Source: an uncultured Acidimicrobiales bacterium
Lineage (GTDB): Bacteria; Actinomycetota; Acidimicrobiia; Acidimicrobiales; VFJN01
DNA length: 64,000 nt
NCBI GenBank assembly: GCA_963842395.1
Contig: CAWJGJ010000002.1
Location: 1,013,426-1,077,425 of the forward strand
Direction: 5' to 3'
The position numbers and the translations under genes were made by a program. Shown here in pieces: positions 3,388-7,585 of this stretch. Positions within the stretch are counted from its first letter, which is position 1, and each line of letters starts with the position of its first letter. The notes below the pieces were generated by a model. That model ran no database searches and was not told where the DNA came from. It was given only the letters and a program-made list of their open reading frames with translations.

Positions 3388-4316
3388 CTACTCGACCAGG
3401 CTCAGGGCGAGCCCGTCCAGGATGTCGGCCTCGGACACGATCATCTCGTCCACGCCGAACCGCCGGAAGATGGCGACGAGCACGCAACACCCGCCCACGA
3501 TCACGTCGGCCCGGGCCTCCTCGAGGCCGGGATTGTGGATCCGGTCGGCCCGCGGCTCGGTGGCCAGGGTGCGGAACACGTCCTCGGCCGCGGCGCGGGT
3601 CAGGCGGAAGTGGTGGATGCGGTCGCGGTCGTAGGTGGCGAGCCCGATCTCGACCGCGGCGACCGTGGTGATGGTGCCGGCCACGCCCACCAGGGTGCGC
3701 GCCTCGGCCGTGCCCGGGACCTCGCGCATCACGTCGTCGAGGTAGGCGTCGGTGAAGCTGATGCAGGCGGACAGCTCGTCGGGCTGGGGCGGGTCGTGCG
3801 CGATGAACTTCTCGGTCAGCCGGACGCAGCCCACGTCGATCGACATCACCCCCTCCACCTGGTCGGTGCCGGCGATGAACTCGGTCGACCCGCCGCCGAT
3901 GTCGACGACCAGGAACGGCCCGAGCGCGCGGTCGAGCTCGCCGGTGGCGCCGACGAACGTGAGCCGGCCTTCGTCGGTGCCGCTCAGCAGCTCGGGGCGG
4001 GCGCCGACCACCTGCTCGACCGCGTCGAAGAACTCGTCGTGGTTGGCCGCGTCCCGGGCCGCCGAGGTGGCGGCGATGCGCACGCGGGCGACGTCGTGCT
4101 CGTCGAGGATGCCGCGGTACCCCCGCAGGGCGGCCAGGGTCCGCTCGATCGCCTCGTCGGCCAGGCGGCCGGTGGCGTGCACGCCCTGGCCCAACCGGGT
4201 GATGGTGTTGCGCCGGTCGAGCACGTCGAGGGCGCCGCCCGCGCCGCCCGCGCCGGGCGGGCCACCAGCACGCGGGTGGAGTTCGTCCCCAGGTCGAGCG
4301 CGGCGATGGCCGTCAT
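3388..4316 (-). CDS. ppx: Ppx/GppA exopolyphosphatase, 1-nt frameshift near 4253
   Basis: N-terminal [12 protein letters not shown] (frame of ORF 3984..4427) joins [37 protein letters not shown] (ORF 3388..4224). Usual position after DUF501. Confidence 0.92.
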
Positions 4317-4786
4317 GGCCCGGAATCTAGAGGCTCGGGTCCGCCGGGTCCGAGGTGGGCCTCGACCCAGCGGCCGACCGGGTCGTCGCCGCCGGCCAGC
4401 AGCCAGGCGAGGTGGGCGTGGAGGCACTTGACGCCCTCGCGGGTGCCGCCCACGCCGCCCGACGGCCGCGGCCCGCGGTGTCCGGCCGGCAGGGCGGCGT
4501 CGCGCTCGGCCGCGTACCGGCGGTGGGCGGCGGCGAGGGCGACCGGGTCGACCTCGGCCTCGGCCCGGGCCACGCCCCCCTCGCTCTCGAGCCGCGACAC
4601 CCAGGTGCGCTCGGGCTCGCCCACGAGCCAGTAGCGGGTCGGCATGGGCCGGCCGTCCTCGAGCAGGGGCGCGTTGCGGATCACGAGCGGGGTCCCGTCC
4701 GGGTGGCGCACCGCCACCTCGAAGGCCCCCTGGGGGCGGCGCCCCAGCAGCCGCTCGACCTCGGCGGCGTCGTCCTGATCACTCAC
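4313..4786 (-). CDS. DUF501 family protein
   Basis: [40 protein letters not shown]; adjacent to ppx. Confidence 0.92.
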
Positions 4787-4878
4787 TGGTGCACCCTCCG
4801 GGATGCACGCAGTGAGCAATCGGCACTGCGTGCCGAGTACCGCACCGTGCTCATGGTTCGCTCGCTGCGCTCGCTCAC
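4783..4878 (-). repeat. 92-bp structured insertion (REP/MITE-like) carrying a 31-codon mini-ORF at a GTGA stop/start junction
   Basis: CTCAC is duplicated at 4782-4786 and 4874-4878. Internal 10-bp stem 4805-4814/4824-4833. Encodes [31 protein letters not shown]. Confidence 0.6.
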
Positions 4879-6483
4879 GCCGGGGCGTGTGACCAGGTGA
4901 CGCGGTGGATCCGCCAGGGCTCGGACAGCCCCTTCAGCTCGACCTCGGCAGCCGGACCGAACGACAGGTCGCCGCCCGACACGGTGAGGTCGCGGGTCAG
5001 GCCCGACACCACGATCTCGCCGGGCGCGGCGTGATCGGTGATCCGCACCGCCACCACCACGTTCTGGCCGAACACGTCGCCGTCGACGTCGACGATCTCG
5101 CCCGTGTGCAGGCCCACCCGCACCTCGACCGGCGTGTCGGGGTTGTCCTCGCGGTACTCGCCGAGCGCCTGCTGCACGCCGACCGCGGCGAGGATCGCCC
5201 GCCGGGCGCTGGCGAACACCACCAGGAACCCGTCGCCCTGGGCCTTGACCTCGGTGCCGCCGTAGCGGGCCACCTGGTCGCGCACGAGCCGGTTGTGCTC
5301 GCTCAGCACCTGGATCCAGCGGCGGTCGCCCAGCCGCTCGGCGTACACCGTCGAGTCGACGATGTCGGTGACCATCATCGTGAGCGTGCCGCTCGGCGTG
5401 TCGCCGTTGCGGCGGGCGCCGCCGTCGTCGGCGGCGGGGGGCGGCGTCGTGGGCACGTCCGGTGACGGCGGCGCGGGGGGCGCAGGGGGCGCGGGGGTGG
5501 CCGGCGGAGTCGGCGCCTCGTCGGAGGCACCTCCGCCACCTCGGCGGGGCGCGGGGACCCGCTGCCGTCCCGGCGGGCCCCACGGTGATCCCGGCCGCCC
5601 GGGCGCCCCGGGGCCGGGGATGCGGGCCAGCGCCTCGGCGACCTCGTCGAGGATGCGCTGCGGCAGGGCCGGCGGCGGGGCGTAGACCCGGTCGCGTGCG
5701 GTCGCCGCGGCGTCGGGGTCGGCGTCGCTCGGCTCGTCCTGCGCGGAGGGCGGGCCGGCGTGGCGGTGGTGGGCGTCGGACCAGTCGTGCCAGTCGCTCC
5801 AGCCCCCGATGCGGTCGCGCTGGCCGGCCATACCGGTCGCGCGACCGGCCGCCGCGTGCGCGGTCGCGCGACCGGGGACGCTTGACCACGGCGCTGACCC
5901 CACCCCACAGACCTCGGGCGTGGATGCGGACGACCGGCGACTCGGGCGTGACGTCGACCGCGCGGGGCTGGTTGGCGCCCCCCATGATCACCATGCCGTC
6001 GACCTCGACCGCGACGCCCTCGCCGACCAGCACGGTCACCCCGCCCATGATCGCCCAGGCCGAGATCTCGGTCACCTGGCCCTCGAACTCGGCCTCGCGC
6101 ATGTCGAGGACCACGCCGCCCCAGAAGGCGAACGCGGTGATGAAGCTCGGGACCCTCCAGCGGCCCTTGGCCGTCGACCCGCTCATGACGGCGATGAACT
6201 TCCGGCTCGTCGCGCCGGCACCCGGGGACGCCGACGGCGCGGGCGCCGGGCGGGGCGCCCGGCCCGGGGTCGCCGGGGCGGGGACGGGCTCCGGCAGCAA
6301 CCCCGGCGGCAGGTTCTGGGCCACCGCCTCGAGCTCGCGGTAGGTCTGCGCCGCGTACACCTGGCTCGCCAGGTCGCCGAACTCGTCGAGCGTCAGCCGG
6401 CCCGCGCCGGTGTGCGCGCGCAGGAGGTCGATGGCCTGCTGGCGCTCCGCATCGCCGATGCGATGATCCCCCGGTTCGGCCAT
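4875..6483 (-). CDS. DUF1707 (SHOCT-like) + DUF2154/LiaF-like domain + class III adenylate/guanylate cyclase fusion, frameshift near 5823
   Basis: RIGDAERQQAIDLLR...GRLTLDEF (DUF1707); AFWGGVVLDMREA...AIMGGVTV; after a +1 shift VTDIVDST, EVKAQGDGF, VRVGLHTGE, GDVFG, ELKGL (cyclase). Confidence 0.8.
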
Positions 6484-6574
6484 GGCGAACAGTCTCGCGC
6501 CGCCGCGCTGCCCCGCGGGCACAGGACGTGGGCAGATCCGCACAGCTGAGACAAACGTCACGGGGCTCGCCTCT

Positions 6575-6592
6575 CTACCTACTGGTAGGTAG
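6575..6592. promoter_or_regulatory. Perfect palindrome CTACCTAC-TG-GTAGGTAG overlapping the -10 of the desaturase gene; probable repressor operator
   Basis: 8-bp inverted repeat; TAGGCT lies 6 nt before GTG 6602. Confidence 0.65.
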
Positions 6593-6601
6593 GCTGGCGC
6601 C

Positions 6602-7585
6602 GTGCCCGCCGCCACCATGCAAGCCGACGCCTTCGTCGCCGAGCTGGAGCCCACTGTGGCCCGGCTCCTCGACCGCCACCTCGCGCAGACCAAGGAATGG
6701 TTCCCGCACGAGCTGGTGCCATACAGCCGGGGCAGCGACTTCGCCGCCGACTACGAGTGGTCGCCCGACGAGGTGCCTCTGGCGGAGGCCGTGCGCTCGA
6801 GCCTGTTCGTCAACCTCCTCACCGAGGACAACCTCCCGTACTACTTCCGGACGATCGAGAACATGTTCGGCCGCGAGTCGGCCTGGGGCGAGTGGAGCCG
6901 CCGTTGGACCGCCGAGGAGGGCCGCCACTCCATCGTGATCCGCGACTACCTCACGGTCACGCGGGCCGTCGATCCGGTCGCCCTCGAGCGGGCCCGCATG
7001 GCCCAGGTGAGCTGCGGCCAGGTGCCCGAGCCCAGCACCCCGCACGAGGGCCTCGTGTACGTCACCCTGCAGGAGCTCGCCACCCGCATCGCCCACCACA
7101 ACACGGGCAAGCTGGTCGAGGACCCGGTGGGCTACGAGATCATGAAGCGGGTCGCCGCCGACGAGAACCGGCACCACCTCTTCTACCGCGACCTGTCGAC
7201 CGAGGCGCTGGGCCTCGACCCGTCGGGCATGGTCATCGCCATCGAGCGCCAGGTGCGCGAGTTCGAGATGCCGGGCACCGGCATCGTCGACTTCGACGCC
7301 CACGCCCGGGCCATCGCCAAGGCCGGCATCTACGACTTCCAGATCCACCACGCGCAGATCCTGCTGCCGGTGGTCGTGCGTCACTGGGGCATCGAGAACC
7401 TCACCGGCCTCAACGACGAGGGCGAGCACGCCCGCGACTCGGTGCTCAAGCGCATCGAGCGGATCGGCAGGGCGGCCCGGCGCCTCACCCGGCGCCGGGC
7501 GGAGTCCGAGTCCGAGCTCGGCATCGAGGCGTCCGAGGGACAGCCGGCCCGGGCGGACGACGAGCGCGTCCCCACCCCGGCCTGA
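6602..7585 (+). CDS. desA: Acyl-ACP desaturase (DesA1/DesA2 family, di-iron)
   Basis: WFPHELVP, NLLTEDNLPYY, WTAEEGRH, LQELATRIAH, IMKRVAADENRH (two ExxH motifs), FEMPG. Confidence 0.95.
   Translation: MPAATMQADAFVAELEPTVARLLDRHLAQTKEWFPHELVPYSRGSDFAADYEWSPDEVPLAEAVRSSLFVNLLTEDNLPYYFRTIENMFGRESAWGEWSRRWTAEEGRHSIVIRDYLTVTRAVDPVALERARMAQVSCGQVPEPSTPHEGLVYVTLQELATRIAHHNTGKLVEDPVGYEIMKRVAADENRHHLFYRDLSTEALGLDPSGMVIAIERQVREFEMPGTGIVDFDAHARAIAKAGIYDFQIHHAQILLPVVVRHWGIENLTGLNDEGEHARDSVLKRIERIGRAARRLTRRRAESESELGIEASEGQPARADDERVPTPA

Follow-up and report, generated by a model that had tools for sequence, protein, structure and literature searches.

Mycobacterial interspersed repetitive units (MIRUs) serve worldwide as a tool for typing tuberculosis strains, and to our knowledge the way in which MIRU-type elements find start codons, spread and spare operons has been an open question since 1997. 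They were reportedly described in that year by Supply et al. (Mol Microbiol 26:991). As portrayed in section 11 of PMC12548453 and section 9 of PMC3184786, MIRUs are units of 40–100 bp that occur in tens of copies inside operons and are co-transcribed with them. The same two sections describe a small open reading frame (ORF) overlapping its neighbours, insertion at start codons with coupling at −4, a tetranucleotide repeat flanking filled sites, empty sites in relatives and a variable number of tandem units. Other small repeats, the miniature inverted-repeat transposable elements (MITEs) such as Correia/NEMIS, ERIC and RUP, are presented in that part of PMC3184786 as non-autonomous, dispersed, often co-transcribed and able to alter the expression of neighbours, and section 11 of PMC12548453 describes bicistronic-design cassettes and natural leader ORFs, in which a short upstream ORF ends on the start of a gene and delivers ribosomes through an inhibitory structure. 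Here we describe a MIRU-like repeat in a 64,000-nt stretch of DNA (the window) from an uncultured Acidimicrobiales bacterium (contig CAWJGJ010000002.1, positions 1,013,426 to 1,077,425), where it occupies 4783–4878 of the window between a cyclase gene and a DUF501 gene on the minus strand.

The repeat at the cyclase–DUF501 junction and its family

The segment 4783–4878 belongs to a non-autonomous repeat family; as a MIRU-like start-codon repeat it is genuine, sharply bounded and of recent insertion. The full reading that we favor, and consider likely, is that of a non-autonomous, MIRU-like Acidimicrobiales repeat that was inserted behind the DUF501 start at a GTGA overlap and relays ribosomes between the two genes. 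On the minus strand the cyclase ORF stops at TGA 4877–4875, and a GTG at 4878–4876 overlaps this stop. The frame opened by this GTG runs for 31 codons and closes at TGA 4785–4783, which in turn overlaps GTG 4786–4784, the start of the DUF501 frame (PF04417). This double overlap had been proposed in a preliminary description made from the letters of the stretch, and the sequence and ORF reading bear it out to the exact coordinate. A GGAGG motif at 4799–4795 lies 8 nt 5′ of the DUF501 GTG. Both ends of the segment carry GTGAG, and excising 4787–4878 (92 nt) restores a single GTGA; the period of the unit is 92 nt because the 4-nt NTGA overlap is shared at each end. A 31-codon open frame alone would be weak evidence because the DNA is G+C-rich (73.7%), and it is repetition that lifts the observation above chance. 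The features of the junction are as follows.

4783..4878, minus strand: repeat unit with GTG start 4878–4876, 31 codons and TGA 4785–4783 (sequence, ORF, about 40 full copies with the same ends, contig breakpoints)
4875..4878, minus strand: head GTGA, where the cyclase TGA is overlapped by a probably host-derived start that now opens the mini-ORF (sequence, orthologous junctions, loci with ATG head and GTG tail)
4843..4874, minus strand: sequence-conserved, GAGCG-rich head with an in-frame ATG, element positions 1–36 when the preceding GTGA is included (alignment, 27-mer matches)
4821..4835, minus strand: predicted hairpin B, 6-bp stem with a 3-nt loop, element positions 44–58 (RNAalifold, covariation)
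4810..4821, minus strand: predicted 5′ arm of stem D, element positions 58–69, including the hypervariable 4-nt segment at positions 60–63 (minimum free energy fold, flank complementarity)
4789..4808, minus strand: predicted hairpin C, element positions 71–90, containing the element-borne Shine-Dalgarno sequence GGAGG 4795–4799 (covariation, minimum free energy fold)
4777..4788, minus strand: predicted 3′ arm of stem D, made up of CA, the element-borne GTG 4786–4784, A 4783 and the first 6 DUF501 host bases (minimum free energy fold, covariation)
4313..4786, minus strand: DUF501 gene (PF04417), 3′ of the element (ORF, Pfam)
4875..5903, minus strand: adenylate/guanylate cyclase-domain gene (PF00211), 5′ of the element, with a putative start (ORF, Pfam)

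A BLAST search of the complete 5.67-Mb assembly with the unit gave 71 hits at 56 loci, and an nhmmer profile of the element gave 63 hits in the same places. The genome carries the unit 4878..4783, with the same NTGA ends, as about 40 full-length and about 25 partial copies; [GA]TGA begins 40/40 of the full-length copies and ends 38/40. It is also present in 22/24 other genomes of the genus, which are mostly incomplete assemblies, so that the earlier proposal of a non-autonomous repeat, as opposed to a single-copy segment, is confirmed. At about 10 of the 56 loci, two or three units (or fragments of units) follow one another head to tail, in steps of 92 or 93 nt. Step lengths of 92, 89, 83, 74, 59, 56, 53, 44, 41, 32 and 23 nt are all 3n−1, the length class anticipated in the preliminary description, and the 93-, 90- and 33-nt forms (3n) are fused in frame rather than relayed. 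The mini-ORF frame is open in nearly all copies, and deletion forms of 7 to 28 codons exist; such forms, for example the 33-nt head-only form, are joined at an internal CAGTG direct repeat. Head-only 33-nt forms, one to three in tandem, are fused in frame to the downstream gene at C1:1569742-1569866, C1:1086666, C1:2904814, C3:578061 and other places, and may thereby add 11 element-derived residues per unit to the N terminus of its product. The MgsA–DUF948 junction holds three units in this genome (C1:293937-294219) and one in a related species; the array here reads as one continuous 93-codon ORF because both inner steps are 93 nt. Contigs from soil metagenomes and one rhizosphere RNA library pile up on 4781–4891 and diverge at 4782 and 4877–4879, and these breakpoints therefore provide an independent mark of the same element ends. 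Such matches are contigs and are uninformative on strand, transcription, RNA level and uncovered parts, and none of the sequencing runs checked covered half of the 64-kb stretch. The depth of the contigs on 4781–4891 is 10 to 100 times that of the neighbors, indicating that the repeat is abundant in such samples. Neither a Rfam scan of window positions 4000–6000 at E up to 10 nor a Pfam search with the mini-ORF product gave a match on the element, and in the 73-unit alignment described below the consensus head bears no relation to the reverse complement of the tail, so that the element has no terminal inverted repeats.

The copies are precise and co-directional on start codons. Loci were oriented by the element, and a flanking frame was counted as coding when its third-position G+C was at least 0.85, its codon positions were in the correct order and at least 60 codons were open; two loci without a located head were scored as failures. 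An upstream coding frame is closed by the head TGA at 41/56 loci, a chain of NTGA-linked mini-ORFs enters an in-frame downstream coding ORF at 43/56, and both are found at 32/56, compared with 2.8% (upstream) and 1.7% (both) for 20,000 random [GA]TGA sites. The placement is thus not random, as had been expected of a repeat that sits in frame at NTGA junctions. Pfam domains were detected in 11/13 downstream and 8/13 upstream ORFs tested, in the predicted frames. Flanking pairs include a histidine kinase followed by a LuxR-type response regulator, histidyl-tRNA synthetase (HisRS) followed by aspartyl-tRNA synthetase (AspRS), and an amidohydrolase followed by an acyl-CoA dehydrogenase, and the downstream genes are functionally unrelated (response regulator, AspRS, ThiS, acyl-CoA dehydrogenase, DUF501). 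The kinase–regulator copy, at C1:523039-526144, sits between a GAF/HisKA_3 histidine kinase gene and the regulator gene; MIRUs were first described in an operon of this kind, senX3-regX3. Four copies (C1:2226119, C2:629946, C2:200521 and C3:757851) lead into no clear gene.

DUF501 loci were located in 25 other genomes of the genus, and the element profile found 0/25 of them filled. The cyclase gene lies directly upstream of DUF501 in 20 of these, and 0/20 carry the element. At 11 of the 20 junctions there is a plain GTGA overlap with the GTG in the DUF501 frame; the remaining 9 have spacers of 7–31 nt, or CTGA with an earlier start, and in the closest relative (86% identity) the junction reads TGA, 13 nt, GTG. 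With none of the 20 junctions filled and 11 of them plain GTGA, the element was gained in the lineage of this genome, and the pre-insertion site was most likely a GTGA overlap of the cyclase stop and the DUF501 start. The empty-site orthologs foreseen in the preliminary description therefore exist, and the segment is not an ancestral N terminus of DUF501. Nine loci that are filled in relatives were also compared with this genome, and seven could be placed. The HisRS–AspRS junction, filled in a relative, is an empty GTGA overlap here. The genes for a pyridine-nucleotide oxidoreductase and ThiS are empty here; each begins at a plain ATGA, has a ribosome site of its own and lies behind a spacer (52 and 179 nt) with no stop/start overlap. 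A fourth gene is empty and begins with ATGG. Among the placed loci, one is filled in both genomes (one unit there, three here) and one is ambiguous. Because empty ATGA starts can follow a spacer, the target is a start codon, usually of the form NTGA, with overlaps merely the commonest kind; the NTGA form of the target suggested earlier is retained, but a stop/start overlap is not needed. At three loci with ATG in the empty form, the filled form has an ATG head and a GTG tail, which indicates that the host provides the head codon and the element the tail codon, and that the first NTGA base is not duplicated. As judged from these junctions, TGA or nothing is duplicated at insertion. The duplicated ends noted previously are thus present here as GTGAG at both ends, but they do not represent a true duplication of that length.

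Conserved RNA structure and the flank-matched segment

To examine the structure of the unit, an alignment of 73 units was used, to which this genome contributed 41, the genus 10, and further Acidimicrobiales or unclassified Actinomycetota records the remaining 22. RNAalifold predicts two hairpins, B and C, from this alignment, and the comparison shows that these predicted hairpins and a third stem, D, are conserved. Counted on 59 terminal units with 8 flank bases, hairpin B is paired in 98.6% of cells, with AU-to-CG exchanges in 23 rows and GC-to-CG exchanges in 7 rows, and hairpin C is paired in 97.4%, with UA-to-CG exchanges in 23 rows. Stem D is paired in 83.7% of cells and has double-sided changes in 6/10 pairs. 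In the same 59 units, columns 68/94 are CG in 29 and UA in 19, columns 64/98 are CG in 32 and GC in 13, and columns 61/100 are CG in 34, GC in 9 and UA in 4. The covariation score of the whole structure is 0.258 compared with 0.112 ± 0.007 for shuffled alignments (0/500 reach 0.258), and a control in which the partners were slid gave at most 0.058. The pair states of hairpins B and C assort independently among the copies, and stem D includes approximately 35 G-U cells, which are more readily reconciled with the sense strand than with the complement. The present copy has a predicted minimum free energy of −55.1 kcal/mol (z −4.5), and in this fold a 12-bp stem D (4810–4821 with 4777–4788) encloses hairpin C, so that GGAGG and the DUF501 GTG are both paired. 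A scan of all columns revealed no further helices: the 5′ variable patch (columns 37–43) has no partner, and no covarying partner was found for the conserved head. An alternative stem between the head and the inner segment (stem A) was paired in 82% of cells, with many mismatches and an end pair without covariation, and was replaced by stem D. A duplex of the head with 16S rRNA is predicted at −33.0 kcal/mol compared with −34.1 ± 2.6 kcal/mol for shuffled heads; since it is no stronger than the shuffles, complementarity to 16S rRNA is not the reason for the conservation of 27 nt.

The preliminary description had instead drawn two mutually exclusive hairpins in this copy, a 10-bp stem (positions 46–55 with 65–74) and a 7-bp stem (positions 43–49 with 53–59), and had suggested that they might act as a translational switch. 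Both can be folded here and they do exclude each other, but only hairpin B, one of the two, shows conservation supported by compensatory changes. For the 10-bp hairpin, 78% of cells are paired and covariation falls below that of the shuffled controls, and the switch was therefore rejected.

The 5′ arm of stem D holds the least conserved columns of the element, and its 3′ arm is composed of the tail NTGA and the next four bases of the host gene. In 46 distinct terminal copies, 125 of 184 flank positions form Watson-Crick pairs with the segment of the same copy, compared with 82.2 ± 5.2 of 184 when the flanks are permuted (0/10,000 permutations reach 125). When each column of the element was scanned against each position of the flanks, the predicted register gave the top two signals (z 4.8 and 4.0), and nothing above z 2.3 was found for the upstream flank in the same scan. 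Covariation links the final base of the segment to the start codon at the tail (C with G in 22, T with A in 17), and no such link is seen to the head codon. Near-identical copies were compared as 102 pairs at different sites with at most 5 of 82 core positions differing; these pairs overlap and are not independent. Between them 4.9% of core sites differ compared with 30.6% in the 4-nt segment, and at 66 of the 125 differing segment positions the flank differs as well and both copies pair. With the segment changing this fast, point mutation followed by selection seems too slow, suggesting that the segment is re-templated from the flank or helps to choose the site. Many young copies with the common segment TCGGTCAC keep a mismatch to the flank, mostly at one position, which weighs against strict guiding. 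An old copy, with the segment ATGAAGAC, has nearest orthologs that are 66–68% identical and differ at the N terminus; in one of them the same gene lies upstream and the junction is an unfilled GTGA overlap. In the 62–83-nt relatives from other genera the flank match is weak, with a mean of 7.68 of 11 for the own flank and 7.35 for other flanks (9/2000 permutations reach this). We tentatively raise the possibility that the hypervariable 4–5-nt segment is written from, or selects by, the first codons of the target gene, in which case the repeat would be a guided, start-codon-seeking mobile element without genes of its own. If this were true, each copy would make a custom stem over its new start codon.

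Proposed working and alternative explanations

In the working that we propose, a ribosome ending the cyclase gene, or one initiating on the host Shine-Dalgarno sequence where there is no upstream gene, would start at the host start codon. The host GTG, which still overlaps the cyclase UGA, would open the disposable 31-codon ORF, and the element would provide a new Shine-Dalgarno sequence, GGAGG, together with a new GTG overlapping the UGA of the mini-ORF. The ribosome reading the mini-ORF would melt stem D and hairpin C, terminate at the UGA and restart 4 nt back at the element-borne GUG. With the Shine-Dalgarno sequence enclosed by hairpin C and the start codon by stem D, translation of DUF501-ppx would depend on a ribosome reading the mini-ORF. 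Relay through the mini-ORF would also make the insertion non-polar, with translational coupling kept or even tightened, and the opening bases of each host gene may either act as the template for the inner arm of stem D or be what that arm is selected to match. We infer this relay from the anatomy of the junction. The peptide itself is unlikely to matter, as the compensatory changes are not silent at the residue level, deletion forms are tolerated and only the first nine codons persist in other lineages.

Several observations weigh against this working or limit it. The tail carries its own Shine-Dalgarno sequence, so that independent initiation could still occur. Between 13 and 15 of the 56 loci fail one automatic criterion, the reading frame is broken in at least one copy (C1:1620674), and the assembly may hold indel errors, as the apparent frameshift in ppx suggests, which would possibly distort some of the frame counts. 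The covariation counts are sequences and not independent events. The RNA-library contigs show the repeat in a soil metatranscriptome and not transcription of this locus. In an even draw of the phylum, the head 27-mer with up to 1 mismatch was found in 0/400 other genomes, indicating a very patchy distribution. Searches of the genome for Y1/HUH and IS110-type genes turned up no mobilizing enzyme.

The search for such an enzyme bears on how the repeat spreads. A palindrome-associated element of the IS200/IS605-like or repetitive extragenic palindromic (REP)-like type, in which the segment 5′ of hairpin C guides to NTGA plus 4 nt and a tyrosine HUH transposase acts in trans, would account for the layout of guide, hairpin, short linker and conserved tetranucleotide, for the match of the guide-like segment to each flank, and for the host head codon and element tail codon, which fit insertion 3′ of the tetranucleotide without true duplication. 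IS608 uses such guides. We consider this explanation unlikely, since no match to Y1_Tnp (PF01797) is present in the genome, which is 95% complete, while 6/14 control genomes gave matches. The pairing also extends to host bases 3′ of the element, in contrast to IS608, for which target recognition is on the 5′ side; the young TCGGTCAC copies carry their flank mismatch, and near-identical copies bear different segments where a slowly mutating inherited guide predicts otherwise. Two IS110-family genes considered as mobilizers are unrelated single copies that share only chance words with the element, and no pair of head and tail flanking a long insert, as expected for an autonomous parent, was seen among the BLAST hits in the genome. 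Spread might alternatively proceed without an enzyme, by template switching and unequal exchange at NTGAGCG homology, with the inverted repeat perfected by quasipalindrome correction, a mechanism known from Escherichia coli work that would rewrite several bases at once. We regard this as a possible but doubtful route. The 4-nt segment differs six times more per site than the core in close copies, toward restored pairing (66/125), the units of a tandem array have the inner segment of the terminal one, one locus differs in unit number between species, deletion forms join at the internal CAGTG direct repeat, and the genome yielded no transposase candidate, all of which would be explained in this way. 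Many G-U and mismatched positions nevertheless remain in young copies, template switching between distant loci is rare, and the exact conservation of the 27-nt head across classes would be left unexplained.

A host cis-regulatory RNA (an attenuator, thermosensor or protein-binding leader) placed before particular genes, as opposed to an inserted element, would fit the conserved, covarying structure that buries the Shine-Dalgarno sequence and start codon, and the G-U pairs that favor the sense strand. It is nonetheless very unlikely, given the lack of a Rfam family at E up to 10, the functionally unrelated downstream genes, the presence or absence of the unit at the same locus in close species and the occurrence of tandem arrays. 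The open frame in nearly all copies, with length variants that hold to multiples of 3, would be expected if the 31-codon ORF encoded a functional small protein and the repeat were a small-gene family. The absence of a Pfam match, the exchange of residues (Ser/Arg, His/Arg) by compensatory stem changes, the tolerated 7- to 28-codon deletion forms and the replacement of all but the first 9 codons in other lineages make such a protein highly improbable. The chance that the segment is an ordinary private spacer or an ancestral DUF501 N terminus is negligible; the DUF501 frame does stay open upstream as far as TTG 4819, but the 56 loci in the genome and the absence of the segment from 25/25 orthologous loci refute this view.

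The repeat family extends beyond this genus. In the species-representative collection, at least 104 stretches contain the 27-nt head without mismatch, and all 80 titles listed are from Actinomycetota, including metagenome-assembled genomes of Acidimicrobiales and Nocardia, Micromonospora, Catellatospora, Streptomyces, Kitasatospora, Nocardioides and Aeromicrobium. Copies of the same type are found in records from Acidimicrobiales, Iamia and Ilumatobacteraceae, and an order-wide search outside the family gave weak matches only, in 3/16 other families. Units in other lineages keep the first nine codons and have a replaced body; they are 62–83 nt in length and are again bounded by NTGA and relayed. 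A 77-nt relative with the same head is present in Nocardia, with 22 heads in one genome, and is detected at E<1e-7 in about 17/201 genomes of the family to which Nocardia belongs. One Streptomyces chromosome contains three tandem 77-nt units with the 27-nt head (C1:2531159-2531339) and one head elsewhere, indicating that the family is present at very low copy number in some genomes.

Neighboring genes and comparison with known systems

Downstream of DUF501 lies a Ppx/GppA gene (ppx), whose start codon is joined to the DUF501 stop by a plain ATGA overlap (4316–4313). This next junction (4313–4316, minus strand) is thus an unoccupied ATGA overlap, a site type like that of the element. The ppx gene begins at this overlap with the usual DLGTNS N terminus, and its frame shifts within a GCGGGCGGC repeat (window 4225–4320, minus strand), the Ppx-GppA domain continuing in ORF 3388..4224; the change of frame is either an assembly indel or a genuine frameshift. 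On the other side, window positions 5850–6693 (minus strand) hold an ORF with DUF1707 and a LiaF-like C terminus in the same frame as the mini-ORF. This ORF extends across the whole cyclase gene as Arg/Pro-rich text that looks out of frame.

When compared with MIRUs by their description in the sections of PMC12548453 and PMC3184786 cited above, our element is similar in having a 92-nt unit at 56 loci in one orientation relative to co-oriented genes, a mini-ORF with −4 overlaps at both ends, insertion at start codons, filled and empty sites with a repeated tetranucleotide (of which the first base is not duplicated here) and variable numbers of tandem units. One copy between a histidine kinase and its response regulator adds to the likeness. 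In contrast to MIRUs, the host is an Acidimicrobiales bacterium and not a Mycobacterium, and two covarying hairpins and a host-matched stem are predicted, whereas the descriptions of MIRUs in those sections contain no such stem. In the literature searched, where subscription journals are sparsely covered, no MIRU-like repeats outside mycobacteria and no printed head or tail motifs were found. The flank-matched stem is the unusual feature of this repeat and the one most worth following up, and if MIRUs share flank matching it would be a pointer to how MIRU-type repeats move and stay harmless. With hundreds of natural copies in harmless soil bacteria, clear empty sites, a structure backed by covariation and a flank-matched stem, the family makes it possible to test guiding against templated correction and ribosome relay against independent initiation. 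For annotation, the consequence is that translated mini-ORFs, wrong or displaced start codons and N-terminal extensions derived from the element may go unnoticed in such spacers.

The small size, subterminal hairpins, fixed end tetranucleotide and hairpin-adjacent segment pairing with the element end are shared with palindrome-associated elements derived from IS200/IS605 and with REP sequences and their associated tyrosine transposases (REP/RAYT), and the pairing in stem D between the segment 5′ of hairpin C and NTGA plus 4 flank bases is a candidate guide/cleavage-site pairing. Unlike these systems, our element occurs in a genome without a Y1 transposase, is probably translated through, is strictly co-oriented with genes and has pairing that reaches the 3′ host sequence. 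MITEs are likewise non-autonomous and dispersed, whereas this element has no terminal inverted repeats and its position is fixed to start codons and reading frame. The resemblance to bicistronic designs lies in a short ORF that ends on the start codon of a gene, with the difference that the cassette is natural, mobile and present in many copies, and the unit may be viewed as a natural counterpart of the bicistronic cassettes with which engineers shield translation from the effects of mRNA structure.

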